A stretch of DNA of 64,000 nt from Patescibacteria group bacterium (GCA_044868145.1 JBIOWE010000006.1:284537-348536); one strand, 5' to 3'; shown: positions 3,129 through 63,089, numbered from the stretch's first letter. Notes: a model not told the origin generated them from the letters alone. Program-made: numbers and translations.

Positions 3129-4104
3129 TGTAGCGGTTATCGGTACCGGGAATATGGGTAGACACCATATTAGAAACTATTTCGAGATTGAGGAATCGAA
3201 CCTAGTAGCAATATGCGACATTGACCCTAAAAAACAAAAATTGTCAAAAAAATTTAAATGTAAATTTTACAAAAATTACAAGCGAATGCTATTGAAAGAA
3301 AAAATTGACGCTCTTTCTATTGCCGTTCCGACAAACGCACATGAAAAAATCGCCCTTTACGTGCTAAAAAGGGGAATACACGTTTTAGTTGAGAAACCTA
3401 TCGCGTCAACTGAAACTGGTGCAAAAAAAATGATTACTCTAGCGAAGCGATCAAATAGTCTTTTGGCTGTTGGCCATATCGAGCGTTTCAATCCAGGAGT
3501 AAAAAAAATGCAGGAACTAATAAAAAAAGGCGCTTTAGGAAAAATAATCTCAATCATTGCGAAAAGAGTAGGACCGTTTGCGCCAAGAATTAAGGAGGCT
3601 GGCGTATTAATTGATTTAGCAGTTCATGACATAGACATAATTAGCTATTTATTCGGTCAAAAACCATCACACGTTTATGTCAACGGGGGCAATGCCATAA
3701 ACAGAAAGATCGAAGACTATGCAGAAATGTTTTTGAAGTTCGGTAGCAGCTCTGGGTATATTCAAGTAAATTGGATTACGCCGGTAATCATTCGTGAATT
3801 ACATGTAACTGGCACCGGGGGGTACGCGCGTTTAAACTATATTACCCAAGAATTAGATTTTTATAAGTCACATTATAAAGAAGACTTCGATGATTACGGC
3901 GATTTCGTCATTCAATTCGGCATTTCTAAAAAAAAGTCGGTCCCAATAAAAACTGAGGAGCCACTCCGTCTTGAACTAAAATCTTTTCTTTCAAACGTTC
4001 AAAATAAAACTAAACCTGAAGTGACGGGCGAACAAGGGCTGCAAGCTTTGAGTGTTGCTCTGAAAGCCTTAAAAAATGTAAAATATGCGAAAGCTGGACA
4101 ATAA
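3109..4104 (+). CDS. Gfo/Idh/MocA family NAD-dependent nucleotide-sugar oxidoreductase (WbpB-like)
   Basis: N-terminal Rossmann segment VAVIGTGNMGRHH with the EKP motif (VLVEKPIA). Typical 331-aa size. Overlaps the upstream DegT gene. Confidence 0.8.
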   Translation: MQENKINVAVIGTGNMGRHHIRNYFEIEESNLVAICDIDPKKQKLSKKFKCKFYKNYKRMLLKEKIDALSIAVPTNAHEKIALYVLKRGIHVLVEKPIASTETGAKKMITLAKRSNSLLAVGHIERFNPGVKKMQELIKKGALGKIISIIAKRVGPFAPRIKEAGVLIDLAVHDIDIISYLFGQKPSHVYVNGGNAINRKIEDYAEMFLKFGSSSGYIQVNWITPVIIRELHVTGTGGYARLNYITQELDFYKSHYKEDFDDYGDFVIQFGISKKKSVPIKTEEPLRLELKSFLSNVQNKTKPEVTGEQGLQALSVALKALKNVKYAKAGQ

Positions 4105-6709: not shown

Positions 6710-7824
6710 TGTGCGTTCGATGCATCTACCATGATAAGATCCCGGGAATTTCTTTTGATTCCGAACGTATTTGCAACTATTGTCGAACTTCTGAACAAAT
6801 GGTAAAAGAGTATCCTGATGGGAAAGAAGGAGAAAAAATATTTTCTCAAATTGTTGAGCAGGTCAAAAAAGATGGTAAAAATCGAAAATACGATTGCGTA
6901 ATTGGAGTAAGCGGAGGCTGCGATTCTTCATATTTGGTTTACATGGCTAAAAAGTTTGGCTTGCGTCCCCTGGCAGCACATTTTGATAATACCTGGAATT
7001 CTTCCATATCTGCTGACAATATAAAAAAAGTTCTTAAAAAACTTAATGTAGATTTATTTACCCATGTGGTGGACAACGAGGAATTCAATGATATGGCTCG
7101 TGCTTTCTTAGAGGCGTCAGTTCCTGAAATTGATGCTCTTTCAGATGTTGCACTTGCCACTGTTCTTTACATGGCTGCCGCGAAGTATAAAGTAAAATAT
7201 ATCTTCGACGGTCATAATTTCCGCACGGAAGGAATGACACCCCTCGGTTGGTTCTACTTCGATGGCAAATACGTTTCTGATATATATAAAAAATTTGGTA
7301 AAGGCAAAATAGTCTCCTACCCAAATTTGTGGTTATCAAAATGGTTGAAGTGGCTGATTATAGACCGGCCCAAAAGAATACGTCCTCTCTACTATTTAGA
7401 TTATAATAAAGAAGAAGTGAAAAAATTTCTTACTAGGGAATTTGGCTGGCAATGGTATGGCGGGCACCACATGGAAAATAAGTATACTATCTTTTGCGAT
7501 AACTATGTAATGCCAAAAAAGTTCAATATAGATTTACGATATGTTGAATTTTCAGCGATGATACGTTCCGGTCAGATGACGAAGGAGCAGGCTCTTAATG
7601 AAATTCAGATACCCCCTGAATGCAAAGATGAGTTAATTCAAGAAGTAAAAAAGCGTTTAGGATATTCTGACGAGGAATTCAATCGTCTCATGGATAAACC
7701 ATTGAAATCTGCAAAAGATTATAAAACGTATCATAATATTTTTAGGGCGATGAAGCCAATTTTTTGGTTTATGCTGCGAGCGGACTTAATTCCAAAAAGT
7801 TTCTACATTAAGTACACCAATTAG
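6706..7824 (+). CDS. N-acetyl sugar amidotransferase, a PP-loop ATPase (WbpG/LPS biosynthesis protein family)
   Basis: N-terminal CxxC...CxxC zinc ribbon. PP-loop SGGxDS (VIGVSGGCDSSY). Immediately followed by hisH-like and hisF-like genes, as in the P. aeruginosa wbpG-hisH2-hisF2 arrangement. Confidence 0.75.
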   Translation: MMCVRCIYHDKIPGISFDSERICNYCRTSEQMVKEYPDGKEGEKIFSQIVEQVKKDGKNRKYDCVIGVSGGCDSSYLVYMAKKFGLRPLAAHFDNTWNSSISADNIKKVLKKLNVDLFTHVVDNEEFNDMARAFLEASVPEIDALSDVALATVLYMAAAKYKVKYIFDGHNFRTEGMTPLGWFYFDGKYVSDIYKKFGKGKIVSYPNLWLSKWLKWLIIDRPKRIRPLYYLDYNKEEVKKFLTREFGWQWYGGHHMENKYTIFCDNYVMPKKFNIDLRYVEFSAMIRSGQMTKEQALNEIQIPPECKDELIQEVKKRLGYSDEEFNRLMDKPLKSAKDYKTYHNIFRAMKPIFWFMLRADLIPKSFYIKYTN

Positions 7825-9266: not shown

Positions 9267-10270
9267 AGATCCTTCACGCACCATTTAACATAGCTGGCCA
9301 GGCATCAATTATTTCCAGAGCTCAAAGGAAATTAGGAATTCAGAGCGACGTAATGGTTTTTAGTCAAACCTATCTTGAGTACGAAAACGACATTATTTTA
9401 AACATTAATACGAAGCCTTTAGCCTCAAAGTTTGGGGTCGTGTTAAAAAACTTTCTCTATTGCATAAGGACGTATGACATTTTCCATTTTCACTTCGGTT
9501 CAAGCCTTTTGCCGTTTCTCATAGATATGCATATTCTTAAATTGCTTGGGAAACCAATGCTCATGCACTATTGGGGGTCGGACGTTATACAAATTGACAT
9601 TGCAAAGAAGTACACACTGCTCAGCGAGGAAGAATTGAAAGAAATCTTCAAAAGTATTCATAGCAGAAGGCGTAGAAAAAAAATTCGTAGAATCGAAAGC
9701 CTGGCTAACATGACAATAGTTGGCGATTACTCTCTTCAGCGATATTCCCCAAAGAGTATTGTCATCCGCCAGGCAATTGATTTGTCTGCATTACAATTCG
9801 TAGGAGTCCCGACAAAAGAAAATAATATCAACGTTGTTCATGCTCCAACCAACCGTAAAATAAAAGGTACGCATCATGTTATAAGCGTAATAGATGATCT
9901 CAAGAGACAAGGTTATAATATGAATTTACAAATAGTGGAAAACATGCCCAATAAAGAAGCGTTAGAGATATATAAAAAGGCCGACATCGTGATTGATGAC
10001 GTGCTGCAAGGTCCTTACGGTATTTTTGCGATTGAAAGCATGGCTTTGGGAAAACCAGTGCTCGGTTATGTAAGAAACACCGAGCAATATCCAGGATTAC
10101 CAATAATGAACACCAGCCCGAGCTCACTCAAAAACAATATCTTATCTCTTTTTAACAACCGCCCATTACGTATAACCCTCGGCAAGCAAGGTAGAGCCTA
10201 CGTCGAACGTCATCATGATAGCTTAAAGATCGCCCAGCAACTAATAGATATCTACAAAACACTATCGTAA
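9263..10270 (+). CDS. glycosyltransferase (GT-B fold, GT1/GT4-like)
   Basis: C-terminal region (FAIESMALGKPVLGY) resembles the GT-B nucleotide-sugar-binding domain. Sits in the glycan cluster. 4-nt overlap upstream. Confidence 0.5.
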   Translation: MKILHAPFNIAGQASIISRAQRKLGIQSDVMVFSQTYLEYENDIILNINTKPLASKFGVVLKNFLYCIRTYDIFHFHFGSSLLPFLIDMHILKLLGKPMLMHYWGSDVIQIDIAKKYTLLSEEELKEIFKSIHSRRRRKKIRRIESLANMTIVGDYSLQRYSPKSIVIRQAIDLSALQFVGVPTKENNINVVHAPTNRKIKGTHHVISVIDDLKRQGYNMNLQIVENMPNKEALEIYKKADIVIDDVLQGPYGIFAIESMALGKPVLGYVRNTEQYPGLPIMNTSPSSLKNNILSLFNNRPLRITLGKQGRAYVERHHDSLKIAQQLIDIYKTLS

Positions 10271-10286
10271 CGGGAATGTGACTTTA

Positions 10287-11756
10287 TTATGAAGTCGTGC
10301 CCGTTTTTTTATTATTAAATAGTAGACTCTTCATAAATCGGATTTCTTCTACGGAAAATATTCTAAAAATGAAACAAGTGCCAACGTACAAACATCCACC
10401 TACAACACCGGCAATGAGTAGATCAAAAAGCGAGCTAGGTTTCAACAGAGCAATCATAAGGACAATGATCATGCTTGAAATTAAACTCTTTCCAACGATT
10501 ACAAAATCAAACTTAATTATTAGGTATTTTTTTGCAAAATAAGTCACAAGGAAAAAAACAAAAAGATAAGCAATCAATGTGGTAAGTCCCGCCGCAATAA
10601 TGCCTAACCGTGGAACTAGTACAATATTTAACACAACGTTTAATATCCCAGCCAAAATCCACGTCAGAGCTATTATTTTCGTTTTTTTTACCAGAAAAAT
10701 TATTTCGCCAATAATTACAAGGAGTCCATAAAATAAAAAAGATAGTGCGACAGCAGGAGTCACTAAATACGCACTGGTAGCGATTTCACGAGTCGACAAA
10801 ATCTCTAGAATTGGACGCGATAAAAAAGATACTGCAGTTACAGCAGGGATCGCAAGCACAAGAAAATACTTTAAAGAATAATATATATATTTCTGGACTT
10901 CGTCGGTCCTTCTGTTATCGTAAAGATCAGACAAATAAGGGGTTAGGACAAACGAAAAAGGTTCTACAAGCAATAAAATCATAGCGCCTAATGCATACGC
11001 TGGCGAATAATAACCCACCGCGGTAACACCGACGAAATACGCAATAACATAGCGGTCACTTAACTGTACAAACCAGCCCGCAACGTTTGATGGTAAAGAG
11101 GGTAAACTATAATGTAAATAATTTTTTACATTCTGAAATTTTGGCAAGCAGAAACCGATTTGTTTGTAAACAGATAGAGATAAGTAAATAAACAAAAGAG
11201 CCTTAAACACGATAACAGTCCATATTACGGCGGCGATGTGATAGCCTGAAAATACAATCAAAAAAATTATTAATAAACTAGCGTAATTTTCCAATAGTAC
11301 AAAAAACGAATATTTCCCTATTTGCTTGAAGGTTCGAAAATAAGCTAGAAGTATTGTATTTGCCGACTGGAAAATGATGATCAGCGTAACAAGCTTTAAC
11401 AGATCTGCACGATTGTCAAAAAACTTTGCGGCAATAGGACCCGATGCCAAAAAAATAATACAACTGAAAATAATACTCAATACAACAACAATGGTAAACA
11501 CGGAATAAAAACCCTCTTGGATTCTTTTTTTATCAACTTCTGCGGCCAAAAACCGAACTAACGCTCCGTGCAAACCGAGCGAAATTAATGGCAAAAAAAA
11601 CTCAGCTGTGGCAATGATTTGTGACCATAATCCAAATTCATATGGCCCTAGAATTTTGGTCAAAAGAGGAATGAGGAAAAAGGATCGCAGTTGTATTAAA
11701 CCTTGAGTAATTCCAATTAAGCCCAAGTGACGGCCGAAGCTAAAAATATTAACCAT
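10287..11756 (-). CDS. polysaccharide biosynthesis protein / Wzx-like oligosaccharide flippase (MOP superfamily)
   Basis: 489 aa with 12-14 predicted TM helices and no soluble domain. Cluster context. Confidence 0.6.
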   Translation of the reverse strand: MVNIFSFGRHLGLIGITQGLIQLRSFFLIPLLTKILGPYEFGLWSQIIATAEFFLPLISLGLHGALVRFLAAEVDKKRIQEGFYSVFTIVVVLSIIFSCIIFLASGPIAAKFFDNRADLLKLVTLIIIFQSANTILLAYFRTFKQIGKYSFFVLLENYASLLIIFLIVFSGYHIAAVIWTVIVFKALLFIYLSLSVYKQIGFCLPKFQNVKNYLHYSLPSLPSNVAGWFVQLSDRYVIAYFVGVTAVGYYSPAYALGAMILLLVEPFSFVLTPYLSDLYDNRRTDEVQKYIYYSLKYFLVLAIPAVTAVSFLSRPILEILSTREIATSAYLVTPAVALSFLFYGLLVIIGEIIFLVKKTKIIALTWILAGILNVVLNIVLVPRLGIIAAGLTTLIAYLFVFFLVTYFAKKYLIIKFDFVIVGKSLISSMIIVLMIALLKPSSLFDLLIAGVVGGCLYVGTCFIFRIFSVEEIRFMKSLLFNNKKTGTTS

Positions 11757-11773
11757 ATTGACCCATTAGCTTT

Positions 11774-12982
11774 TTATTGGTGGTAGACCTTGCAATTATA
11801 TTGAGCCTCCAAGTAAACTTCTTGATATCTCCGAGATATACTCTGAGGAGTTAGGTTTTTTTTACCAAATTCTACATTGTGAGAAATCAATTTATCACGT
11901 AATTTATTATCGCGTGCCAAATGAACCAACTGAGTACTATAATCTTGAATGTCCAAGGGCGTAAACCCAATACCGCACCCAAAATCCAAGAAATGACTTT
12001 GACTCGGATGACGAGAAATCAGCAACGGGACACCGCAGGCTATTGCCTGTGAAATACTAATAGTCGGAAATAACGCCCAAGTAGCAATATCCGAGGCGTT
12101 GAAAAGCGATGCGAGCTCTTGCTCTTTAACAAATCCTTTTTGAATAACATAGGGCCTAATTCCTAATTCATCAATAAGGTCATTCAACTGATTTGCATAA
12201 TTATATTCACCATCTCCAACGATCAAGAGACGTAAACGTTGCTCATGTTTTATTGAAAACGCAAACGCCTTCAGAAGAACATCGTGTCGTTTAAATGCAT
12301 GCAAACTCCCTGTTGTAATAATTAAGACATGATCATCAGAAATATCGAGCACATTTCTAGTTCTCTTCCTTATTTCTTCGTTACGGGAAAAAAATTCTGT
12401 ATCTGCTCCAAGCGGAATTAGATGCACTCGTCCCCTATCAATTTTGTATTCTTTTTTTAAAAAATCGATACCACCTTTTGTGACGGAAACAATTGAATCT
12501 GCCCAGAAATATGCTCGATTAACGATACGTTTTCTAACAAATTCATATTCTAACTCTACTAATTTTCTATTGTCAAACGAGCGTGTATATTGATGTTGAT
12601 CAATGACAATTGGCGCTTTATGACGGACTATGTTTGCTACCTGCACTGGTAACCCGTGGGATGGTTCATGGAGGTGCCAAATGTCAGCACGAAGATTTTT
12701 TACTATGCTCGCTACGCCCCGACAAAAGTACAAATCTGAGTAATGAAATAATGTTGGTAAAGTAATGATCTTGTTTGCGACACTGTTTTTTTCACTATTG
12801 CGGGTGCCCTCCGCATTCGGGATTTCATTCCTTTTCAAAACTTCTTTCCAGCTTTTGTGGCCAGCCTTTGTTGTAACAAAAATCACGTCGTGTCCTAACT
12901 TTAGCTGGGCCTTCGCTAATAAAGCTTCTTTTTGGCTTACGCCCGATGATACAAGTGTTTTAGTTACATGTACGATTCTCAT
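11774..12982 (-). CDS. glycosyltransferase family 4 (GT-B)
   Basis: MRIVHVT start. C-terminal GT1/GT4 signature region (FPT...ISQAIACGVPLL). Confidence 0.7.
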   Translation of the reverse strand: MRIVHVTKTLVSSGVSQKEALLAKAQLKLGHDVIFVTTKAGHKSWKEVLKRNEIPNAEGTRNSEKNSVANKIITLPTLFHYSDLYFCRGVASIVKNLRADIWHLHEPSHGLPVQVANIVRHKAPIVIDQHQYTRSFDNRKLVELEYEFVRKRIVNRAYFWADSIVSVTKGGIDFLKKEYKIDRGRVHLIPLGADTEFFSRNEEIRKRTRNVLDISDDHVLIITTGSLHAFKRHDVLLKAFAFSIKHEQRLRLLIVGDGEYNYANQLNDLIDELGIRPYVIQKGFVKEQELASLFNASDIATWALFPTISISQAIACGVPLLISRHPSQSHFLDFGCGIGFTPLDIQDYSTQLVHLARDNKLRDKLISHNVEFGKKNLTPQSISRRYQEVYLEAQYNCKVYHQ

Positions 12983-12989
12983 TTGTCGC

Positions 12990-13973
12990 TTATTTTGACA
13001 CTACAATTTCAATGGTATCACCAACATGAAGAAAATTCATGAAATACCTAAATGGTAATAACAAAAAATTAATAATGATATTAAATAACATAAGCTGATC
13101 GTTATAAAGTTTCTTGTTGATTGAAAGTTGACGCTTTTTCCTAAGGGACGCATCGGTAAGGACATTTAAAAAAGATCCTAAAAAACGAAAAGGGTCGGAG
13201 TTATAGTTTAGTTTTGTCACGATGAGCCCCGTTTTATACGCATATAATTTAAGTGTCTTAGGCGAATAATGATATAAATGACGAGGTATTTCCAAATTAA
13301 CCCAAAACTGTTTGAATAATTTAAAAGGCAGTGAACTTACATTTGGAACCGTAACGATTATTGATCCACCGGGCTTTAAAATACGTTTTAGTTCTTGTAA
13401 AAGCAATGTAGGACTCGGGACATGTTCGAAAACATGGTTTAAGGTTATTACATCAAAATAATCTTCTGGAAACTTTGCTGAAAATAAATCTCCTGGAAAG
13501 ATGTTCAAACCATTTTTTTTGGCAAATTCTTTATCAAAACTCCCAGGCTCGACGCCATAAACGTTCATTCTGAGGGAGCGCGCCCTTAATAAAAACTCCC
13601 CCGAGCCGCTTCCCACATCTAAGAAATTTCCTTTGGGCACAACCAAGACTGTTCGTAATAATGGTCGTATCGGCGCAAATAATACACGAAAAAAGAAGTT
13701 TTTCCGATGACTAAAATATAATTTATATATATAATTATTAATCTTCCCTAAAAATGATTTTTTCGTTGGTTGAGTCAGGGAATAGTAAGCTTGTTTAGGA
13801 TAAGCAATATCTAATTCACTTAATTCTATTTGCGGATTTTGCATAATTAAAGAGCACTGCGAACATTGAACAATATCAAAAGATTGTGCATTGTCAAATA
13901 TACGGTCATGGCCAGAAAATAAAAAAATTAAATCGTGGCTTCCACAAAGATCACATTCTGAAATTTGTTTCAT
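12990..13973 (-). CDS. class I SAM-dependent methyltransferase with an N-terminal Cys4 zinc-ribbon
   Basis: CDLCGS...CSQCS pattern. Motif I LDVGSGSGEF. Methyltransferase fold motifs. Confidence 0.7.
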   Translation of the reverse strand: MKQISECDLCGSHDLIFLFSGHDRIFDNAQSFDIVQCSQCSLIMQNPQIELSELDIAYPKQAYYSLTQPTKKSFLGKINNYIYKLYFSHRKNFFFRVLFAPIRPLLRTVLVVPKGNFLDVGSGSGEFLLRARSLRMNVYGVEPGSFDKEFAKKNGLNIFPGDLFSAKFPEDYFDVITLNHVFEHVPSPTLLLQELKRILKPGGSIIVTVPNVSSLPFKLFKQFWVNLEIPRHLYHYSPKTLKLYAYKTGLIVTKLNYNSDPFRFLGSFLNVLTDASLRKKRQLSINKKLYNDQLMLFNIIINFLLLPFRYFMNFLHVGDTIEIVVSK

Positions 13974-27985: not shown

Positions 27986-30121
27986 TTAACGGGCAACTAC
28001 TCCGACAAACACGCCGCCACGAAACGCCAAAGTGTAGGCGAAGAATTGTCCAAGGACCTTGCCGGTTAGGTTAAAAAGACGAACTTGTGGTCCGCCACCA
28101 TACCCCGCACCCGCAACAATATCGTCTGTACCATCATTATTCACATCCCCAGCGGCAACATGAACGCCACCGCGAAAGGTTGATGCATACGCGAAGAATT
28201 GCCCAAGGACCGTTCCCGACTTCGTGAATATGCGGACGTGCGGGCCTCCGTTGGAAAAAGGACCTGTGACGATTTCATCCACCCCGTCACCGTTCACATC
28301 ACCGGAAGCCACGGAGACGCCACCCCGAAAGGTCGCGGCGTAGGCAAGAAATGGCACATACTTCCGCGTGCCAAACCGGTCAAAAATGCGTACCTCGGGA
28401 ACTGTGCCAACGCCTGCGCCAGCGATAATTTCATCTACCCCATCACCATTAACATCGCCGGCAGCGACGAAAACGCCGCCACGCTGCGCCTGATCAAAGG
28501 CAAAGAATCCCGGGGTGAACTTCGGCTTGCCATAACGGTCAAACACGCGCACCTGGGGTCCGCCGCCGTTGCCCGGACCGGTGATTATTTCATCCATCCC
28601 GTCGCCATCAAGATCTCCGACTGCAACATGCACACCGTTGCGAAATGTCGAGGCGTAAGCGAAAAACCCCGGCGTGAAGACTGCCGATCCGTTGGTTCGG
28701 AACACACGTACCTGAGGGCCGCCGCCAGGCCCTACGCCGGTAATAAGTTCCGAGGTACCGTCGCCGTTTACGTCGCCAGACGCTACTTCAACGCCTCCCG
28801 GAAACGTGGTTGCGTACGCGAAAAATTCAGATGCTACATTTCCTGATGCGTTGAGGAGGCGAACGTGGGGGCTGCCACCCGGGCCTGCACCCGTTACAAT
28901 GAGGTCGGACAGCACAATCGCTTGCTCGCTGTTAATGCTTTTTGCCAGGTTCACGCGTCCAGCGCCCAACTGACCCGCGTACGATGGATTACCCGCATCC
29001 AAATCATCTGACCCCTGAAACAGAACATCAGACACTTCAGAAAAAAATAGAAGGGGGTTTTTCGCCATGATGAGTGACAGGGCGCCGGCAATAACAGGGC
29101 TTGCGACCGACGTTCCGTACCATCCAGACTGATAGTAATCCGTAAACCCCTGGCCAGGAGAATAAAAAACCGTGCTGGTCATGTTAATGCCAGGGGCTGA
29201 AATATCGATACAGGGTCCATAGTTAGAAAAGCTTGTTTTGTGATCCAGCTCATCCGTGGCCGCAACACCGATAACATTGTCATTACACACCGGATATTGG
29301 GGTGTCGTGGCAAGGTTCACATTGTTATTACCGGCGGCGGCAACGACCAGGGCACCATGCTGCGCGGCATTGGTGATCGCCTCTTGAAGTACCTGACTAT
29401 TCGTTGATCCCACGAGGCTGAGATTGATAATATCAGCGCCCTTTGCAACAGCGTAGTTCACTCCTTCAGCAATAGTCAGAGTATCCCCCAGCCCGCTCCC
29501 GTCAAGCACGCGAACGGACATAACCCTACTGGTCCATACAACACCGCTTATGCCTGCCGCATTATTGCCTACTGCCGCCGCTATGCCAGCGACGACAGTG
29601 CCGTGACTCATGCCCGTGTCAGTCCACGCACCATCAAATTTCGGATTTGGATCAGCACTCCCTTGCACAAAATCCCAGCCATGAACGTCATCAATAAACC
29701 CATTCAGGTCATCATCAATACCGTTGCCAGGTATTTCTCCTGTGTTCATCCAAATATTCCCGGCCAGGTCCGGATGGTCAAGATCAACGCCGGAGTCAAG
29801 AACCGCGATAACGACGTCTTGTGATCCCGTTGTAACGTCCCAGGCAGTTGGCGCTTGAAGGGGTGAAAAATACCATTGGCTTGCATACAGCGAATCATCA
29901 GGCACTGTGGCCATCGAAAAACTCGCCAACGGTTCACGGATGGTGGCTCCATCATGTTCCATGATAATGGTATTGCCGTCCATACGGTAACTCACCCGAT
30001 CAAGATGATGAGGGCGACGGGAGACGTTATAACCAACGCTTGCCTCAACTGGATAAAACAAAAAGCACAGTACAAAGCACAGCGCAGTTAACGATCGTAT
30101 GGATGAGCAGCGCGCTGCCAC
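27986..30121 (-). CDS. secreted subtilisin-like serine protease (peptidase S8) fused to a C-terminal FG-GAP repeat beta-propeller
   Basis: N-terminal signal peptide. S8 triad motifs VLDSGVD (Asp), HGTVVAGI (His), GTSVASPVIAG (Ser). The C-terminal ~310 aa hold six ~44-aa repeats (GDVNGDGxDEIxxGxGxGGGPQVRxF...FFAY), with a possible degenerate seventh. GTG start 1 nt after the upstream stop. Confidence 0.85.
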   Translation of the reverse strand: MAARCSSIRSLTALCFVLCFLFYPVEASVGYNVSRRPHHLDRVSYRMDGNTIIMEHDGATIREPLASFSMATVPDDSLYASQWYFSPLQAPTAWDVTTGSQDVVIAVLDSGVDLDHPDLAGNIWMNTGEIPGNGIDDDLNGFIDDVHGWDFVQGSADPNPKFDGAWTDTGMSHGTVVAGIAAAVGNNAAGISGVVWTSRVMSVRVLDGSGLGDTLTIAEGVNYAVAKGADIINLSLVGSTNSQVLQEAITNAAQHGALVVAAAGNNNVNLATTPQYPVCNDNVIGVAATDELDHKTSFSNYGPCIDISAPGINMTSTVFYSPGQGFTDYYQSGWYGTSVASPVIAGALSLIMAKNPLLFFSEVSDVLFQGSDDLDAGNPSYAGQLGAGRVNLAKSINSEQAIVLSDLIVTGAGPGGSPHVRLLNASGNVASEFFAYATTFPGGVEVASGDVNGDGTSELITGVGPGGGPQVRVFRTNGSAVFTPGFFAYASTFRNGVHVAVGDLDGDGMDEIITGPGNGGGPQVRVFDRYGKPKFTPGFFAFDQAQRGGVFVAAGDVNGDGVDEIIAGAGVGTVPEVRIFDRFGTRKYVPFLAYAATFRGGVSVASGDVNGDGVDEIVTGPFSNGGPHVRIFTKSGTVLGQFFAYASTFRGGVHVAAGDVNNDGTDDIVAGAGYGGGPQVRLFNLTGKVLGQFFAYTLAFRGGVFVGVVAR
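27990..28920 (-). repeat. about six tandem ~132-nt degenerate coding repeats (FG-GAP blades) inside the subtilase gene
   Basis: Periodic protein repeat. The plus-strand antisense ORF 28199..28846 is an artifact of this repeat. Confidence 0.6.
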
Positions 30122-39544: not shown

Positions 39545-39621
39545 TTGGGTAACCGCCAATCCTCAGATTGGCGGACCACGGTTTCCCACATTACGCCCGA
39601 TCTGAGGATCGGGTGTTACCC
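39545..39621. repeat. dual-hairpin structured element, copy A (outer stem GGGTAAC/GTTACCC; hairpin 1 CCGCCAAT-CCTCAG-ATTGGCGG; hairpin 2 CCCGATC-TGAG-GATCGGG)
   Basis: Read directly. A second copy at 51721..51787 has an identical hairpin 1, and compensatory substitutions in the outer stem and hairpin 2. Confidence 0.6.
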
Positions 39622-39630
39622 GCGAAAAAA

Positions 39631-41877
39631 CTACTGCCTTTCAATCAGTGCGGTGTATATTTGATCAGACGTGAGGTCAGCGGAAAACTTGAGCTGATTT
39701 TGAGAAGACTCCCCGCTTTGGCTCCACGCGAGCACGTATTGAGAGGGCAGTCGAAGGAACGAAACCAAGCCTGTCGGCGCAGAACCAGGCTGGCGTTGCA
39801 CGAGAAGAGAATAGGTATCAGTCGGGTGCGTCAAAAAACCCGTTCGTAAGCTAAACGGAAGTTTATAGGAAACTTCGACTGTTGCCTGCTGACCAGGACG
39901 CACAACAACCCAGTTGCCGAACACCGTTTTGCCAAATTCATGTGTTACGCGGGTTTGCGTTCGTTCATCGAGTGAAGGATTTTTCTCAATTGCCAAGAGA
40001 TCTTCGTCTTGCCCCGCATCAAGGTCAGGTTCTTTAAACCTGGATTGCGGAATGACGCTAAATCCTTGAGCGTCAATAAGCTCGCTGCCTTCGGGAACGT
40101 AGAATCGAACGTAGGAGACGTTATCAACGCCCGCAAAAGCATCATTCTTCGAACCGTTATGCACGCGTGTCAATTTAACTGTATCGATAATGGAGCCATC
40201 GTCAAGAACGCGAGCTTCATGGAGAATCAATTGTTGCATTGACGCGTCCGTTTTGCCGCCGCCAATGTTCGTCGTCACCACGGAAAGAAAATCTTTTTCA
40301 GCGGGCAGAATCGCCCCGGACCAACGAAGGTCCTCGATGCGCTGCTGCGTTTCTTGATTTTTGCTGAACAGCAGGAGGTCGCGCTGATCAAAGGAGGTGC
40401 TCAAAGCTCCTAACAAATCAACCAACTTATCAGGACTAACGGAGAAGAGCTTATTTAAAAGCACAGGCAGAAGATCAGCGATGAACGCTTTTGGCTCGCC
40501 ACTCTCTCGATGAGCGTCCGAATAGGATTGTGCGTACGCAACAAAATTTGATGCACTGATGACAGTGCCGTATGGGTCGCGCATATCAATGGACCCGGTT
40601 ACGTCAAGGAGGCGCTCAATAAATGTTGGTGTAAGCGCGATAACACCGTCAACGGACGGTCCGCCGCTTTTTTCGTAAAACCACATTACTTTTTTCGCGC
40701 TCGTAGGAAAATCCGGGAACCAATTCGCGTCTTGGATGTTCCAATACGGATTCACGAGGTGGAGCGGATTCGGGGACACAATCTTTTCAGGAAATTGGCC
40801 GGCGATGTCATAACTTCCGCCGCGTGGCACCTCAATCCTCTCTACTGCGCCCTGGTAAACGTCAATGAGCGCGAGGGAGCCGATAAACCCGCCCGTAGGC
40901 CGAAGCTCACGATTATTTTCAAAAAGCACCAAGTAACGTTGCTGCGTATGTGCGCCAAGCACCGAAAGAAGGGCCTGGGAAGCCTTTTCCAAATAACTGA
41001 AATTGTCCCGAAGGGCTGGCAGTACGCCGGCAAGCGTCTGGAACGTTTCGCGACTAGACTCCGGAATATCTTCAGGGCGAACCAGTGAAAGGTTATCGAT
41101 CGTCACGCGCACGTAATGTTCCAGCAGAGGCAAACGTTCGGTCAAAACCGAAAAGTCCCGTGTTACGGTTTCGTCGGAACCCGGGACGCGCGTATCAATG
41201 GCTTGCAACAAGCTCGCCAATTCCTCCCCTGCTTTACTCATATACTCTCCGGCGGTCAACAAATGCTCTGCGCTACGCGATTCGCTGGAAGCCGCCTTTA
41301 CGATATCAGTTGTGAGCCCGCCGAAGCTGCGGAATTCTTCTTGGGCTGCGACGAAGCCGTTCTTCGCCTGCTCAAAGGTTGATGAGGCTTTATCGTACTG
41401 CTGGGAGGCAATATACTGGGAGGCATCAATGAATTGACCGTATGCATCCGTGCTGGCGCCGAGTACCTTACCTTTCACTTCTTTGGCTTTTTGAATTGCC
41501 GAAACGACAAAAAACGGCACAAGCAATGCGCATAAGAGCAAAACAAACACCAGAAGATGTTTGAACCGGGGCGTAGACAACTTCCATGAAATGTCAGAAT
41601 GATTTTCTTTTCGTTTTTGACCTCCGCGCGGCCGCCGGTGCACAGGCGCGTCTTCTGCCGGCACGGTAAGGTGATGAATGGCTTTCCCCACTGTTTGCGT
41701 GCCCGCGCTAAAAAAGTTTTCCAACGCTGACTGGCGCACTGTCTGCTTCGGCTGCGAAGATTTGTCAGTCATTTTGCGAAGATTCAAAACATTTTCCTCG
41801 GGGACGCCAATCCCGGCGCGCGGCTTTTGAATACGCACGCTCCGTGAACCGTTTGTTTTGTGATTAGTCCGATTCAT
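39631..41877 (-). CDS. DUF4012-domain extracytoplasmic protein, membrane-anchored (cell-envelope polysaccharide locus protein)
   Basis: N-terminal basic region plus one TM helix. Core motif QRYLVLFENNRELRPTGGFIGSLALIDV, characteristic of DUF4012. 748 aa. Confidence 0.6.
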   Translation of the reverse strand: MNRTNHKTNGSRSVRIQKPRAGIGVPEENVLNLRKMTDKSSQPKQTVRQSALENFFSAGTQTVGKAIHHLTVPAEDAPVHRRPRGGQKRKENHSDISWKLSTPRFKHLLVFVLLLCALLVPFFVVSAIQKAKEVKGKVLGASTDAYGQFIDASQYIASQQYDKASSTFEQAKNGFVAAQEEFRSFGGLTTDIVKAASSESRSAEHLLTAGEYMSKAGEELASLLQAIDTRVPGSDETVTRDFSVLTERLPLLEHYVRVTIDNLSLVRPEDIPESSRETFQTLAGVLPALRDNFSYLEKASQALLSVLGAHTQQRYLVLFENNRELRPTGGFIGSLALIDVYQGAVERIEVPRGGSYDIAGQFPEKIVSPNPLHLVNPYWNIQDANWFPDFPTSAKKVMWFYEKSGGPSVDGVIALTPTFIERLLDVTGSIDMRDPYGTVISASNFVAYAQSYSDAHRESGEPKAFIADLLPVLLNKLFSVSPDKLVDLLGALSTSFDQRDLLLFSKNQETQQRIEDLRWSGAILPAEKDFLSVVTTNIGGGKTDASMQQLILHEARVLDDGSIIDTVKLTRVHNGSKNDAFAGVDNVSYVRFYVPEGSELIDAQGFSVIPQSRFKEPDLDAGQDEDLLAIEKNPSLDERTQTRVTHEFGKTVFGNWVVVRPGQQATVEVSYKLPFSLRTGFLTHPTDTYSLLVQRQPGSAPTGLVSFLRLPSQYVLAWSQSGESSQNQLKFSADLTSDQIYTALIERQ

Positions 41878-47344: not shown

Positions 47345-47753
47345 TGCCAAGGTAAGCCTGTAAGCCGAATTCTGTTCTCCTACTTGCAAGCAAGCGGAAG
47401 AGATAATTATCTCTCTGGGACCGCCATTGCTGGCGGCCTCTAGCGCCCGTTCGGGCTTGCACCGGAGAGGGTTTTCCACGCTCCTATCTCGCGATAGGTG
47501 CGCGTGAGCTCTTACCTCACGATTTCGCCATTGCCTGATCCCACCTCGTCGGCGGGCCATTGGCTGTGTATTTTCTGTTGCACTTTCCCTGGGCTTCAAT
47601 GCTTTACAGTTCTCGAGAGATCCGCAAAGCACCTACTCCCGGTCGCCGTTAGCGACTCTCCACTTCTCGCCTCGTCGGCGAGGGTGTTCGGACTTTCCTC
47701 CCCACCTTCCCCTTGCGGAAAAAGGCGAAGCAATTATCCAACTTACCTTGGCA
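47345..47753 (-). ncRNA. rnpB: RNase P RNA, bacterial type A
   Basis: The minus-strand sequence contains GGGGAGGAAAGUCCGAACACC (P4 5-prime strand), AGUGCAACAGAAAA, GGGAUCAGGCAAUGGCGAAAUCGUGAGGUAAGAGCUCACGCGCACC and ACAGAAUUCGGCUUA (P4 3-prime strand). P1 forms by pairing of CCAAGGUAAG with CUUACCUUGG. About 408 nt. Confidence 0.85.
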
Positions 47754-49940: not shown

Positions 49941-49971
49941 AGCTGAGACGAAATATTCTCAGCTTTTTTTA
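49941..49971 (+). terminator. intrinsic terminator
   Basis: AGCTGAGA..TCTCAGCT stem followed by TTTTTTT. It abuts the recJ stop on the opposite strand. Confidence 0.65.
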
Positions 49972-51711
49972 TTCGTTTGATGCGTGCTTTAAGTCCTTCA
50001 CTTTGAGCTGCAGCTGTCGTTCGCTATTCCATTCGTTGACGGAAACTTCAAACACAATATCCACTTTGTCGCCGACGTTGAGCTTGTCGCCCCAGGAGTT
50101 CGCAAAACCGAAAGCGATAAGCTTATGCGGTTGCCCCGTCCCTTGCTCCACAAGTAATCGCAGATGCTTCCCATCGTTTCCAACGCGGTCTATGCTCGTT
50201 ACCGTCAAGCCCTCGGTTAAGAGGGTTGGTCGAGGATTTTTTTCACCAAATGGCTCAAGCTTTTCCAGCGTTTCCCAGATGTCCCAATGGATATCGGCGA
50301 GTTTGACCTGCGCGTCAATCATCATGCGAGGAACAAGGTCCTCCTTACCGAGCTGTTTATGCGCGTATTGTTCAAGACTCTCCTGAAAAACTGAAAGATT
50401 GCTTTTTGCCATGCTAAACCCGCATGCCTGGCTATGGCCTCCATATTTTTCAAAAAGCTTTTCGTGATGTACGAGCGCTTGCGTGATGTCGAACGCCGGA
50501 ATGCTGCGTCCTGACGCGACGATTGTTTTGTCTTTCAACGTCATAGCAAACGCGGGTCGATAATAATGGTTTGCCAGCTTGCCTGCAATCAATCCGAGTA
50601 ATCCGGCAGGCCAGTCTTTTTGAAACGCTGTAACCATTCGGATATCCGGGGGGAGCTCGCCGATTTGTTTTTTTGCCTGCTCAACGACCTTCTCCGTCAT
50701 TGTCTGGCGTTCCTGGTTCTTCTTATTGAGCTCCTGGCTGATTTGTTCAGCTGCCAATTCATCCTGAGTTTCTAAGAGCTCAAATGCCGTGTTCGCGTGG
50801 TCCATCCGGCCAGCAGCGTTCAAGCGCGGTGCAATCTGGAATCCGATGGAATAGGTGTCGATTCGCTCTGGCCGTATCCCGGCAAGGTCAATGAGTTTTT
50901 GCAAGCCCACTCTGCGGGTTTTCCGCAGGACAACAAGGCCATACTTCACGAGGGTGCGGTTTTCGCCGACGAGTCGCATCATGTCTGCAACAGTACTGAT
51001 AGCGACCAAGTCGAGCAGCCATTTTTCATATCCATCAAGTAAACGCTTCCCTTTGTCCTCCACGCATAACGCTTGCACAAGTTTATACGCCACACCGCCT
51101 GCTGCGAGATATTTAAACGGATATGTCTCACGCTTGAACTGCGGATTTAAAATCGCGTAAGCGGCAGGTTTCGTCGTTGGCTCTTCGTGATGGTCCGTTA
51201 CAATTACATCCATTCCCTTCTCATTCGCTAGCGCGATTTCAGGGGCGTTGCTTGTGCCACAGTCACAGGTGATAATCAATTTGGTTCCGCCTTTGGCGAT
51301 TGTCGTGACGGAATTCATATTCAGCCCGTACCCCTCGCGTTCGCGATGCGGCAAATACACCTCAACGGAATTGGCGCCAAGCTTTTTTAACGTTTCAACG
51401 AGCATCACTGATGCGCACACGCCGTCCGCGTCGTAATCCCCGTGCACCGTGATCTTCTCTTTTTTTTGAACGGCTTCGAAGATTCTCTTGACCGCTTTTT
51501 TCATGTCCACGAATAAAAAAGGGTCATGGATATCCTGACCGTAATCCGGATTCAAAAACTCGTCAATGGCTTTTTGATCGCGTATGTTGCGATTGAACAG
51601 CAACTGGAGAATAATCGGATCTATTTCTGGGAATTGCGCTTGAAATGCCGCTGGAACTTTCTTTGCAACAAGCCATTTACGAGTCATAGTTGGATGTATT
51701 GTATCATACAT
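49969..51711 (-). CDS. recJ: single-stranded-DNA-specific exonuclease RecJ
   Basis: DHH family motifs (VHGDYDADGVCAS, IVTDHHE), DHHA1 region and a C-terminal OB-fold. The start is set at the internal MYDTIHPT, because the longest ORF start overlaps the structured element at 51721. Confidence 0.85.
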   Translation of the reverse strand: MYDTIHPTMTRKWLVAKKVPAAFQAQFPEIDPIILQLLFNRNIRDQKAIDEFLNPDYGQDIHDPFLFVDMKKAVKRIFEAVQKKEKITVHGDYDADGVCASVMLVETLKKLGANSVEVYLPHREREGYGLNMNSVTTIAKGGTKLIITCDCGTSNAPEIALANEKGMDVIVTDHHEEPTTKPAAYAILNPQFKRETYPFKYLAAGGVAYKLVQALCVEDKGKRLLDGYEKWLLDLVAISTVADMMRLVGENRTLVKYGLVVLRKTRRVGLQKLIDLAGIRPERIDTYSIGFQIAPRLNAAGRMDHANTAFELLETQDELAAEQISQELNKKNQERQTMTEKVVEQAKKQIGELPPDIRMVTAFQKDWPAGLLGLIAGKLANHYYRPAFAMTLKDKTIVASGRSIPAFDITQALVHHEKLFEKYGGHSQACGFSMAKSNLSVFQESLEQYAHKQLGKEDLVPRMMIDAQVKLADIHWDIWETLEKLEPFGEKNPRPTLLTEGLTVTSIDRVGNDGKHLRLLVEQGTGQPHKLIAFGFANSWGDKLNVGDKVDIVFEVSVNEWNSERQLQLKVKDLKHASNE

Positions 51712-51720
51712 CTCACCACA

Positions 51721-51787
51721 TTGGGTAGGCGCCAATCCTCAGATTGGCGGCCCACATCGGCCGGATCTGAGGATCCGGCCTACCCAA
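51721..51787. repeat. dual-hairpin structured element, copy B (outer stem TTGGGTAGG/CCTACCCAA; hairpin 1 CGCCAAT-CCTCAG-ATTGGCG; hairpin 2 GCCGGATC-TGAG-GATCCGGC)
   Basis: Read directly. It is a paralog of copy A at 39545..39621. Confidence 0.6.
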
Positions 51788-51832
51788 GGGATGATAAGCA
51801 AGGAGTCGCCTCCATGCCAGCTTTCTTTATTA

Positions 51833-51925
51833 TGGGTAGTCTCGGGTCCCCCGCCCGCTTCGCGTTGCGAAGCAAGGCGGGCGGGCTTGACCCGAGGCGA
51901 GGTCAAGGGACCTCGCCTACCCGCT
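51833..51925. repeat. GC-rich nested palindromic element (GGGTAG..CTACCC outer; CTCGGGTC..GACCCGAG; CCCGCCCGC..GCGGGCGGG; GGCGAGGT..ACCTCGCC)
   Basis: Read directly. GC content is far above the local average. It shares the CCCGCCCG/CGGGCGGG stem with the element at 57296..57346. Confidence 0.5.
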
Positions 51926-51928
51926 GGA

Positions 51929-51957
51929 TTGACAGCAAGCGATGCACCATGTACTGT
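51929..51957 (+). promoter_or_regulatory. putative sigma70-type promoter of the 51987 gene
   Basis: TTGACA-17 nt-TACTGT, upstream of the RBS AAGGAGGTG. Confidence 0.35.
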
Positions 51958-51986
51958 AGGTACTATCAAAACAAAAAGGAGGTGCC

Positions 51987-52265
51987 ATGAGACCTGTTCG
52001 CTTTGACCTTTTAATTCACGTAGAGCGGAAGGAGGAGCTTCAAAAAGTAGTTGAATTTCCGGCATTCGGCTATACAGTATCCATTGTAAGAGGAAATGAC
52101 GAGGCTTTCCTGGATCAAGAAAAAAGAACCATTCAAATTGGCATTACGGAAAAAACGGTAAATGAGCTGCCAGGTGTTTTAAAAGTACAATTTCATAATC
52201 TATCTGATGGTTCTCTAAAATCGGGGGTTTACGTGCCAAGGGGTGGTAATGAATCAGGAACGTAA
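51987..52265 (+). CDS. hypothetical small protein (92 aa), possibly with a P-II/GlnB-like ferredoxin fold
   Basis: Strong RBS, and a terminator immediately downstream. The alternating hydrophobic pattern is weakly reminiscent of the P-II fold, but this is not secure. Confidence 0.45.
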   Translation: MRPVRFDLLIHVERKEELQKVVEFPAFGYTVSIVRGNDEAFLDQEKRTIQIGITEKTVNELPGVLKVQFHNLSDGSLKSGVYVPRGGNESGT

Positions 52266-52271
52266 TACCAT

Positions 52272-52305
52272 AAACGCTGGCACACCCTACCAGCGTTTTT
52301 TTATT
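52272..52305 (+). terminator. intrinsic terminator
   Basis: AACGCTGG..CCAGCGTT stem followed by TTTTTTTTATTT. Confidence 0.7.
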
Positions 52306-52411
52306 TATGCCCATTAACCGAGCGCAGGCCGCTGTGCCTGCGATCGGTTCACTTCAATTGATTGCACGTCGCACCCACAGCGGGGTGCTCTGGGCTTTTC
52401 GTACACTTACC

Positions 52412-53281
52412 TTACATAAGACCACTCATCAACGGGCCGATATCTCTTTTCGTGGCATCCTGTTTCACAAGCGGCTGCTCTATGATTTGCGGCAGCTCAT
52501 CTTCATAGCTCAATCTGTCTTCCCGTTTGTAAAAAATCCCGATCGGCATTTTGTCTGGCCCTTCTTGAGACTTTTCCCACGCTTTGTTTTTGTCCGTCGG
52601 TTTGTAGCTTTCCTTTTCAAGCTCGTACACGCGGCGATAGAACCACTGGAAAGTGTTCAGTTTGTTGAACGTCACGCATGGCTGCAAAACGTCAATGAGC
52701 GAGAAACCGCGGTGTCGCATCGCCTGCACCATCAGGTTCGTCAAATGCTTGGTGTTTCCGGCAAACCCACGAGCGATAAACGACGCGCCTGCACCGAGCG
52801 CAAGCGCGATCGGGTTTACGGGCTCCTCGATCACTCCCATCGGCGTTGACTTTGCTTTCACGCCTTTCATAGCAGTCGGCGAGTTTTGGCCAGTGGTCAA
52901 GCCGTACACTTGGTTATCATGCACGATAAGCGTGATGTCATGATTGCCCCGAATCGCATTCAAGAAGTGGTTCATACCTTCGCCATAGGTATCCCCATCG
53001 CCGGCAATGACCACGACGGGCAATTTGTGGTTCGCCATTTTCGCGCCTTCGGCAACCGGCAAAGGCCTACCGTGCAAACCATGGAATCCATACGCTTTCA
53101 CGAAACTCGCCATGTTGCCGGAACAACCAACGCCAAACACAATGAGCATCTGGTCAGGCGAAATGCTGAGCTCTACAAGCGCGTTCTTGAGAGCCGTCCA
53201 AATCCCAAAATCACCGCAACCCGGGCACCAGGTCGGGAATTGCGATGTTTCATAATCCTTGACGTTCAAAGGCGCGCTCAT
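52412..53281 (-). CDS. korB: 2-oxoacid:ferredoxin oxidoreductase beta subunit (TPP-binding; PFOR/KOR family)
   Basis: WCPGCGDFG motif. TPP-binding GDGD (VVIAGDGDTYGEGMNH). 289 aa. Confidence 0.85.
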   Translation of the reverse strand: MSAPLNVKDYETSQFPTWCPGCGDFGIWTALKNALVELSISPDQMLIVFGVGCSGNMASFVKAYGFHGLHGRPLPVAEGAKMANHKLPVVVIAGDGDTYGEGMNHFLNAIRGNHDITLIVHDNQVYGLTTGQNSPTAMKGVKAKSTPMGVIEEPVNPIALALGAGASFIARGFAGNTKHLTNLMVQAMRHRGFSLIDVLQPCVTFNKLNTFQWFYRRVYELEKESYKPTDKNKAWEKSQEGPDKMPIGIFYKREDRLSYEDELPQIIEQPLVKQDATKRDIGPLMSGLM

Positions 53282-61826: not shown

Positions 61827-61892
61827 CTTGAAAAAATTAAAAAGTAAAAGTCAAAAAGTAAAAAATAATGTAAAGAAATTTTCCTAAACTTT

Positions 61893-63089
61893 TCATTTTT
61901 CGTTTTTACTTTTTACTTTCTTCATAAGCGGCGCGATTCCGGGAAGCGTTTTGCCTTCCAGGAATTCGAGCATCGCGCCTCCGCCTGATGATAGAAAAGA
62001 AAAACGCTTTCCAAGTCCGAGGCCGTGTATTGCGTCAAGCGTTTCGCCGCCCCCAGCGACAGAAAACGCTTTTGTGCTCGCGACGGCTGATGCGATTTTT
62101 TTCGTGCCGTTCGAAAAACGTTCAAGTTCAAACCAACCCATTGGTCCGTTCCAAACAACAGTTTCCGCCTTGTAGATTATCGTTTGAAATAAATTGATTG
62201 TGTCTGGCCCGACGTCGAGAATCGTTTCATTTTCCCCAACATTCGCGACTGCGCACGTTCGCCCATGTGCCCGTTCACTGGCTTCTTGAGCGACAACCAC
62301 ATCAACAGGGATATGCAATTTGTTATCAGTGAGAGGCAAATGTTTCGCTTGCTCCATCATGGTTTCTTCGATCAATGATTTTCCAACCTGTAATCCTTGC
62401 GCTTTCAGAATGGTGTTCGCGAGCGCGCCGCCAAGCAACAAGTAATCAACTTTTTTCAACAACTCTTTGATCACTCCGAGCTTCGTGGAAATCTTCGCGC
62501 CACCGATAATGCCGACGTATGGCCGCTTCGGTGCGCCAACGAGCTTCGACAGCTCAGCGACCTCATGCGCCAACAGAAATCCCGCGTAACTCGGCAAGGT
62601 GGCTGCGATGCCCGCTGTCGAGGCATGCGCTCGGTGTGCTGAGCCAAAAGCGTCATTCACGTACACATCGCCGAGACGAGCCAACTCGCGGATAAAACCA
62701 GGGTCATTCGTTTCTTCGCCTTCGCAAAATCGTATGTTCTCAAGCAAGAGGATTTGTGATTCTTGTAACGCGCCTACGGCGTGTTCCGCTTCTTCCTCGC
62801 CAGCGCAGTGCGGCACATAGCTTATAGACTGTCCGGACAGAAGTGCTCTTAGTGTATCAAAAACAGGCTCCAACCGATATTTGCCTTGTCTGGTTCCGTC
62901 GGGCCTGCCTAAATGACTCAACAGTATTATTTTTGCTTTCTGTTTCACGAGATACTGGATCGTCTCCAAGGCCGCCCGAATCCGCATGTCGTCATCAACC
63001 TTGCCGTTACTGATCGGGACATTAAAATCCACTCGCACGAGCACACGCTTTCCTGCCACGTCCGCTTCTTGTATTGTCCGCAACTTCAT
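61893..63089 (-). CDS. pgk: phosphoglycerate kinase
   Basis: KRVLVRVDFNVP N-terminal signature. LSHLGRP. GGGA motifs. The start is set at MKLRT. Confidence 0.9.
   Translation of the reverse strand: MKLRTIQEADVAGKRVLVRVDFNVPISNGKVDDDMRIRAALETIQYLVKQKAKIILLSHLGRPDGTRQGKYRLEPVFDTLRALLSGQSISYVPHCAGEEEAEHAVGALQESQILLLENIRFCEGEETNDPGFIRELARLGDVYVNDAFGSAHRAHASTAGIAATLPSYAGFLLAHEVAELSKLVGAPKRPYVGIIGGAKISTKLGVIKELLKKVDYLLLGGALANTILKAQGLQVGKSLIEETMMEQAKHLPLTDNKLHIPVDVVVAQEASERAHGRTCAVANVGENETILDVGPDTINLFQTIIYKAETVVWNGPMGWFELERFSNGTKKIASAVASTKAFSVAGGGETLDAIHGLGLGKRFSFLSSGGGAMLEFLEGKTLPGIAPLMKKVKSKNEK

Follow-up and report, generated by a model that had tools for sequence, protein, structure and literature searches.

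The DNA analysed here, a 64-kb stretch hereafter called the window, carries recJ on its minus strand and, divergently oriented, an open reading frame (ORF) for a 92-aa protein, likewise predicted as a gene on the Logan contig (Table 1). A strong ribosome-binding site serves this ORF and a hairpin with a T-run comes after it, so that the GC-rich block found next to it lies in a divergent intergenic spacer, between recJ and the ORF, where the original prediction had placed it. The hairpin with the T-run occupies 52272-52302 (AAACGCTGG-N9-CCAGCGTTTTTTT), and the interval from there to the convergent PFOR beta gene, the product of which is on record on one contig only, contains a second inverted repeat, with 26-nt arms (52318-52394). 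The best homologues of RecJ are at most 59% identical to it, and those that are named belong nearly all to Patescibacteria, Kerfeldbacteria or Parcubacteria. The window shares with such genomes the gene order PFOR alpha, PFOR beta, one variable gene and recJ, with a glycosyltransferase/DUF4012 block approximately 8-10 kb further on, and it therefore most likely derives from a candidate-phyla-radiation bacterium.

The longest ORF that contains recJ spans 49969..51735 on the minus strand and begins with a TTG at 51735. It had been proposed that this frame is too long, which holds, and that translation starts at an internal methionine at 51711, which does not. The N-termini of 40 RecJ homologues follow the pattern M-x-[RK]-K-W-(L/V/I)..., which is matched by MTRKWLVAKK at the ATG at 51687, and therefore the start of recJ is this ATG, neither 51711 nor the TTG at 51735.

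Two palindromic elements occupy the region 51721-51925. The first (copy B) reads GGGTAGG, a hairpin CGCCAATC-CTCA-GATTGGCG, a short spacer, a hairpin GGCCGGATC-TGAG-GATCCGGCC and TACCC, and its palindrome reaches outwards to TTGGGTAGG...CCTACCCAA (51721-51787). The second is the GC-rich block itself, which reads GGGTAG-T-CTCGGGTC-C-(CCCGCCCGC-N18-GCGGGCGGG)-CTT-GACCCGAG-GCGAGGTC-AAGG-GACCTCGC-CTACCC. Both elements (51723-51785 and 51834-51922) are thus closed by GGGTAG...CTACCC. Copy B and all the stems listed for the block in the original prediction were present in the sequence; its estimate of a block of about 90 nt was accurate (89 nt), while the gap between the two elements, given as at most 45 nt, measures 48 nt. 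The G+C content reaches 72% in the block and 67% in copy B, against 45% in the window and 49% locally, and so the block does lie far above the window average, as had been claimed.

The region 51715-51930 folds with a predicted energy of -125.5 kcal/mol on the plus strand and -130.8 kcal/mol on the minus strand (z = -8.8 and -10.2, respectively), a stability attained by none of 200 shuffled sequences. Perfect arms consisting of GGTA followed by a hairpin of at least 7 bp occur five times within the elements of the window, against 0.73 expected per shuffled window, and only three strong structures closed by GGGTA...TACCC exist in the 64 kb, namely copy B, the GC-rich block and a further element at 39547-39621 (copy A). 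Tandem Repeats Finder reported no arrays in the window.

Table 1 Coordinates of the features discussed in the text. Positions refer to the window unless a locus is named; feature names follow the interpretation favoured in the text.
Feature	Position	Strand	Description
recJ	49969..51687	-	572 aa; Pfam DHH, DHHA1, RecJ_OB
Candidate extended -10-like motif TGATACAAT	51698..51706	-	10 nt upstream of recJ ATG; read from the sequence, not listed by promoter scan
REPIN B (copy B), type a	51723..51785		two inverted REP arms, heads outward, 9-nt spacer 51750-51758
Left REP arm of B	51723..51749	+	head GGGTAG(G) 51723-51729; stem CGCCAATC 51730-51737; loop CTCA 51738-51741; stem GATTGGCG 51742-51749
Right REP arm of B	51759..51785	-	GGGTAG-GCCGGATC-CTCA-GATCCGGC-C; 9-bp stem, 4-nt loop
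Spacer between the two REPINs	51786..51833		48 nt
REPIN G, type b (GC-rich nested palindrome)	51834..51922		two inverted arms, heads outward, no spacer, 89 nt
Left REP arm of G	51834..51896	+	head GGGTAG 51834-51839; T; stem CTCGGGTC 51841-51848; stem GACCCGAG 51889-51896
Nested 36-nt GC hairpin CCCGCCCGC-N18-GCGGGCGGG	51850..51885		in CCTT loop of left arm of G; boundary ambiguous by 1 nt (C run)
Right REP arm of G	51897..51922	-	GGGTAG-GCGAGGTC-CCTT-GACCTCGC-C
Divergent 92-aa ORF	51987..52265	+	Shine-Dalgarno AAGGAGGTG; followed by hairpin and T-run; no Pfam family
REPIN A (copy A), type a	39547..39621		heads GGGTAA; 9 nt downstream of stop of DUF4012 gene 39631..41877 (-)
Type-a doublet in frame in threonyl-tRNA synthetase gene	L123 11932-11989		ORF 11627..13426
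REPIN-carrying RAYT genes	L122 507-1133; L125 7372-8073; L128 10001-10588; L130 10001-10696; L230 108-692; L231 699-1307		
Chloroflexota repeat examples (in L002-L121)	L009 6287-6880; L011 150-360; L052 5000-5260; L095 3480-3690		

The internal organisation of both elements follows one plan. Each is made of two inverted arms with their heads outward, and each arm consists, from outside to inside, of GGGTAG, 0-1 nt, a GC-rich stem of 8-9 bp and a pyrimidine-rich 4-nt loop. In copy B, the left arm has a perfect 8-bp stem and a 4-nt loop, and the two hairpins are mutual reverse complements at the apex (ATCCTCAGAT and ATCTGAGGAT; the apex we call type a, ATC-CTCA-GAT), so that the element consists of two inverted copies of one unit. 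In the GC-rich block the apex is of a second type (type b, GGTC-CCTT-GACC / GGTC-AAGG-GACC) and the left arm is an atypical long form, an 8-bp foot carrying a 36-nt hairpin, its loop C...CTT being split by this insert. When 51850-51885 is removed, the left arm reads GGGTAG-T-CTCGGGTC-CCTT-GACCCGAG, a canonical type-b arm; the CCCGCCCGC...GCGGGCGGG stem is therefore an insert nested in the loop of the arm. The GC-rich block and copy B therefore represent one kind of element in two versions that differ only in the type of hairpin, a kinship that the original prediction had not noted.

The nested hairpin occurs once in the window and is absent from loci L001-L226. A count of CCCGCCCG..CGGGCGGG palindromes, which had been proposed as a check, was run on the same material and gave one in the window and none in these loci, and the piece that had been singled out for counting turned out to belong to the nested insert and not to the repeated unit. 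The public Logan contig L001, which carries the same sequence, stops at window position 51858, inside the nested GC hairpin, which could be explained by the repeat or by poor coverage.

This architecture is that of repetitive extragenic palindromes (REPs). Published rules define a REP by a GTAG or GTGG tag placed 0-2 nt 5' of a hairpin with a stem of 7-20 bp, a loop of 2-5 nt and a GC-rich foot, or of a long bulged hairpin (PMC6006769, PMC2817692), and REPs often occur as inverted pairs (dimers or REPINs), clustered as BIMEs (PMC3733652). In the region 51723-51922, GTAG lies 0-1 nt from the foot of the hairpin in all four arms, and three of the arms have perfect stems of 8-9 bp, 4-nt loops and at least three G/C among the first four pairs. 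The arms are paired in inverted orientation with heads outward, as in a REPIN, the spacer being 9 nt in copy B and absent from the block, and the four of them alternate in orientation (+,-,+,-) within 200 nt, which is the regularly spaced, alternating cluster that characterises a BIME. The original prediction had offered a regulatory RNA, a REP-like element and the target of a DNA-structure-binding protein as readings; the REP-like element was the right one, since both elements are inverted pairs of GTAG-tagged hairpins. We therefore consider it very probable that 51721-51925 holds two adjacent REPINs (hereafter REPIN B and REPIN G), that is, inverted GTAG-tagged REP doublets of a family that has cognate REP-associated tyrosine transposases (RAYTs) in related contigs.

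Three doublets were found in the 64 kb, and arms of identical type occur in other contigs. Copy A has a left hairpin identical to that of REPIN B and a closing stem in which changes are compensated; its GTAA heads fall outside the GT[AG]G rule. No further copy of REPIN B within three mismatches was found besides the exact match. As a possible DNA-uptake signal, the 10-nt core was rejected: only four exact cores are present in the 64 kb, all of them within the two type-a doublets. A scan of metagenomes in which the GGGTA tag was required returned the low-GC contigs L122-L125, which have the same architecture with wholly different, yet paired, stems, and the architecture of REPIN B matches that of elements in L122-L125 and L130. 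Doublets of the type of REPIN G also recur, in L124 (247-309 and about 7639-7701) and inside transposase genes of L128, L230 and L231. The 27-nt right arm of REPIN G, GGGTAGGCGAGGTCCCTTGACCTCGCC, has two exact copies in L124 and is also found unchanged within the L128 transposase gene.

An alignment of 16 type-a arms had 98.4% of its cells paired, with changes on both sides in five of the eight base pairs; none of 500 shuffles reached the score and no slid register came close to it. For the eight type-b arms the paired fraction was likewise 98.4%, and four of the eight pairs had changed on both sides. In a scan of viral contigs the type-b arm pattern had no matches and the type-a half pattern had 96 single matches, none with a matching hairpin and most of them representing one conserved phage sequence. 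A full-text literature search for the core sequences retrieved unrelated primer matches only.

Members of the family occupy a variety of positions: copy A follows a gene at its 3' end, REPINs B and G sit between divergent genes, and in L123 a doublet lies in frame in a threonyl-tRNA synthetase gene, to which it adds about 19 residues, read in the same frame as the doublets inside transposase genes described below. REPs are known to be mostly extragenic and sometimes to lie in frame in genes, notably those for DNA repair and tRNA synthetases, and the varied contexts seen here match this published behaviour; in the genomes surveyed, the divergent promoter region was the least favoured location for a REP (PMC3733652).

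In related contigs the family is physically linked to a transposase. Doublets are present inside Y1 transposase genes in L122, L125, L128/L129, L130, L230 and L231, and also just 3' of the gene in L122 and L130. In L122, a type-a doublet lies in frame in a 208-aa ORF (Pfam Y1_Tnp; 117 bits on NF047646) and an identical copy follows the stop codon of that ORF. Five of the linked proteins score 97-136 bits on the NCBIfam model NF047646 'REP-associated tyrosine transposase' (cut-off 80) and fail the IS200 model (21-34 bits against a cut-off of 55), and their homologues are annotated as Patescibacteria transposases or RayT. A search of the PDB identified E. coli TnpA(REP) (4ER8) as the only solved relative, and alignment to this structure shows that the insert falls within the linker immediately ahead of the IWQP-F motif. 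An insert of type a or type b occupies this same position in at least 17 protein clusters, and short homologues (P0155, P0170) are without it. The gene in L130 has two REPINs in tandem and P0126 has several, and just downstream of the L130 transposase gene there are single GGGTA-tagged hairpins of a third type. Two RAYT ORFs (P0124, P0128) end prematurely in the embedded type-a doublet, which may be due to frameshifts within the repeat or to contig ends.

Between contigs, the arms embedded in these genes share 73-96% identity, against only 55-73% for the transposase coding sequence on their flanks, and we found no published description of REPINs in frame in RAYT genes. One possibility, which we put forward tentatively, is that a clade of RAYTs, the named members of which are all labelled Patescibacteria, carries its own REPIN maintained in frame, and that free copies such as those next to recJ descend from it or are kept matched to it. 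The inserts that best match the type-b arms of the window belong to P0134 and P0158, both from samples other than that of the window, and no RAYT gene was found within the 64-kb window (tblastn; profile built from 91 RAYTs). A RAYT is presumably encoded in this genome and would have moved the copies described here.

How such movement could proceed is suggested by the E. coli enzyme, for which hairpin and GTAG tag are both required to bind single-stranded DNA and to cleave it at a CT dinucleotide (PMC3479197). A doublet can adopt either of two shapes, a pair of local hairpins closed by GGGTAG/CTACCC or a single long hairpin, and minimum-energy folds of REPINs B and G give either form. By analogy with E. 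coli REP/TnpA(REP), the arms would fold on single-stranded DNA, and a RAYT, an HUH/Y1 enzyme, would bind the hairpin together with the GTAG tag and cut and rejoin the strand, by which copies would be spread into non-essential DNA.

Conservation upstream of orthologous recJ genes had been proposed as a check on the elements, and the outcome went against a bond with this gene. In two relatives with the same gene order and a RecJ 56% identical (L228, L229) there is no such element upstream of recJ. The closest relative (L227, RecJ 59% identical) has, 40-150 nt upstream of recJ, three GGGTA-tagged REP arms of other types. These arms (9850-9965, e.g. GGGTAGGTCGGAGCCCTCGCTCCGACC) have a near-identical counterpart just 3' of the L130 transposase gene. 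The elements are thus not conserved with recJ in the three related loci, a result that speaks against their being a leader or operator dedicated to this gene. That REPs recur at the recJ position, in L227 and in the window, may be a coincidence or may reflect a favoured landing site. The two doublets most likely represent neutral or mildly modulating insertions rather than a dedicated regulator of recJ, whatever effect they may have on its expression.

A stronger version of such an effect would be that the elements are REPINs by origin and have now acquired a local role, as the -35 region or part of the leader of recJ, as insulators of the two promoters through cruciform formation or supercoiling, or as binding sites for nucleoid proteins, as in E. 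coli BIMEs. The arrangement of the spacer offers some arguments in its favour: REPIN B ends 35 nt before the ATG of recJ, its TACCCA end sits at the -35 position relative to the candidate extended -10-like motif TGATACAAT, a putative promoter on the minus strand in the spacer between the REPINs (CTGGCA-18-TATCAT, 51820 to 51791) would make REPIN B part of the recJ leader, and a TTGACA lies 6 nt after REPIN G. Moreover, the closest RecJ relative also has REPs, of other types, just upstream of recJ, and REPs have been reported as protein-binding sites and RNA elements (PMC3733652, PMC2817692). However, these promoter motifs agree only weakly with the consensus, no such element is present at two related recJ loci and the same elements are found in unrelated contexts, and we therefore regard an acquired local role as rather unlikely.

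Chances are slimmer still for a dedicated cis-regulatory RNA (a leader, riboswitch or small RNA, in which the CUCA/UGAG loops would kiss) or a recJ-specific DNA operator. The structure is very stable, the type-a loops are complementary and the element adjoins recJ, but the complementarity of the loops arises because copy B is made of two inverted copies of one hairpin, and the dyad symmetry gives the same reading on both strands, as expected of a repeat at the level of DNA. A search of the whole window against Rfam at the gathering score found only RNase P, and relaxing the threshold to an E-value of up to 10 for 51600-52450 returned nothing relevant, the best hit being a microRNA model with 25.7 bits against a threshold of 90. 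A regulatory RNA specific to recJ, as one of the original readings would have it, is not supported either: relatives have no such element, or one of another type, in front of recJ, and the element is found 3' of an unrelated gene and in frame inside coding regions elsewhere.

The short, palindromic and repeated nature of the elements and their conserved ends, GGGTA/TACCC, are also features of a miniature element of the MITE type, with terminal inverted repeats as its recognition sites and target-site duplications as the trace of its insertion. We give this very little credence: the flanks of the listed elements contain no direct repeat, no parent or full-length insertion sequence with these ends was found in any locus, and the only physically linked transposase is the RAYT. 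Furthermore, the conservation of tag and hairpin, with stems that drift with compensation, indicates recognition of structure. Least credible of all are intrinsic terminators or chance GC-rich palindromes, for although the hairpins are strong and a stop codon precedes copy A by 9 nt, no arm is followed by a T-run, a terminator scan of 51500-52450 found none, both neighbouring genes have the block on their upstream side, the terminator reading is already contradicted for B and G, and chance is excluded by the covariation and by the 27-nt identity to elements of other contigs.

If the elements are read as REPINs, their closest counterparts are the REP/BIME/REPIN-RAYT systems described for E. coli (yafM), for Pseudomonas fluorescens and by Di Nocera et al. 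(2013), with which they share the GTAG tag at the foot, a GC-rich stem of 8-9 bp, a short loop, inverted heterodimer arms, clustered and mostly extragenic doublets, compensatory changes in stems and, in related contigs, a linked NF047646 protein. Similar-looking REPs have been published for Salmonella (TGTAGGCCGGATAAG...) and H. parasuis (GTAGGGTGGGTCTTGACCCACC) (PMC2817692). The differences concern the host, which appears to belong to Patescibacteria, the tag, of which the truly conserved portion is GGGTA followed by G, C or A, and the arrangement around the transposase: a classical RAYT gene, to which REPs are linked, has one REP on each flank (PMC2817692), whereas the linked RAYT genes of other contigs hold a doublet in frame or 3'.

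Two other systems share single features with this family. Rickettsia palindromic elements (RPEs) and intragenic REPs resemble it in that some members (L123, RAYT genes) are in frame inside genes and add about 21 residues, in line with descriptions of RPEs and of REPs in repair and tRNA synthetase genes; unlike RPEs, REPINs B and G are extragenic, and RPEs are longer, some of them belonging to a CGTC super-family without a known transposase. The subterminal hairpins of IS200/IS605 elements and of their non-autonomous derivatives are likewise recognised on single-stranded DNA by an HUH/Y1 enzyme that uses a hairpin and a 5' guide tetranucleotide, but the proteins linked to this family fail the IS200 model, and the doublets are symmetric instead of forming distinct left and right ends around a gene.

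The type-a apex has a wider distribution. When one genome per species was scanned for ATCCTCAGAT-N10-40-ATCTGAGGAT, at least 120 loci were obtained, and among the matches listed about a hundred were in Chloroflexota (Anaerolineae, Caldilineae, Ardenticatenia), often several per genome. The half-units of these repeats have the consensus G.GGAGT..GC-ATCCTCAGAT-GC and form dyads, with many copies per genome among the matches listed; they lie outside long open frames in 60% of cases, compared with 13% for random positions, and some loci contain tandem arrays of halves with periods of 48 nt, about 45 nt and 91 nt. The Chloroflexota repeats and type a share the identical 10-nt apex ATCCTCAGAT in both arms, the dyad layout and a G-rich tag 4-7 nt outside the apex. 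In contrast to the elements of the window, the tag of the Chloroflexota repeats is GGAGT instead of GGGTA, their apex is flanked by GC...GC, and they are found in genomes of high G+C content.

Searches by tblastn and with a profile built from 91 RAYTs detected no RAYT beside these repeats among the 120 loci listed, the one in L058 having a different REP. In that locus (Anaerolineae, 2740-3900), a classical REP, GTAGGACGGGTTGCCAACCCGTCC, stands on either side of a RAYT-like ORF (about 2816-3447), which is followed by a long array of this REP; the REP differs in type from the ATCCTCAGAT element 2.2 kb away. We found no published name for the GGAG-tagged repeats and treat them as a related but separate family. 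That type a has exactly the same apex as more than a hundred of the Chloroflexota copies listed could reflect a conserved recognition code, or the passage of a REP-transposase pair between Chloroflexota and candidate-phyla-radiation bacteria.

Descriptions of REP-RAYT systems concern mainly Proteobacteria, along with a few other phyla, and candidate-phyla-radiation bacteria are known for their small genomes. A literature search for REPINs or RAYTs together with Patescibacteria found none, the two terms co-occurring only in an unrelated study of rRNA primers. That canonical GTAG-tagged doublets, together with RAYT genes that match them, are present in contigs assigned to candidate-phyla-radiation bacteria widens the range of REP-RAYT systems, and types a, b and c would make up a compact, sequence-defined set of hairpin/enzyme pairs. 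If kept by selection, a REPIN embedded in the gene for a transposase would be a new way for repeat and enzyme to stay linked. For annotation, the block is best labelled as repeat elements and not as a recJ leader, with recJ starting from 51687. Such repeats also break short-read assemblies, which matters for genomes recovered from metagenomes; the public contig ends in the block.

Some other features of the window were recorded. Bacterial RNase P RNA class A is encoded at 47345-47749 on the minus strand (205 bits), and an AT-rich inverted repeat, with 46-nt arms that are 74% complementary and lie 4 nt apart, is found at 61829-61924. The G+C content is 36-42% in positions 1-23000 and 44-57% in 24000-64000, which may mark an island or a cell-surface gene cluster. 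The highest local value in the window, 57%, coincides with six diverged direct repeats with a period of 153-159 nt (28003-28826), which lie inside an ORF of 711 aa (27986..30121, minus strand) and suggest that its product is a protein with repeats of about 52 residues.
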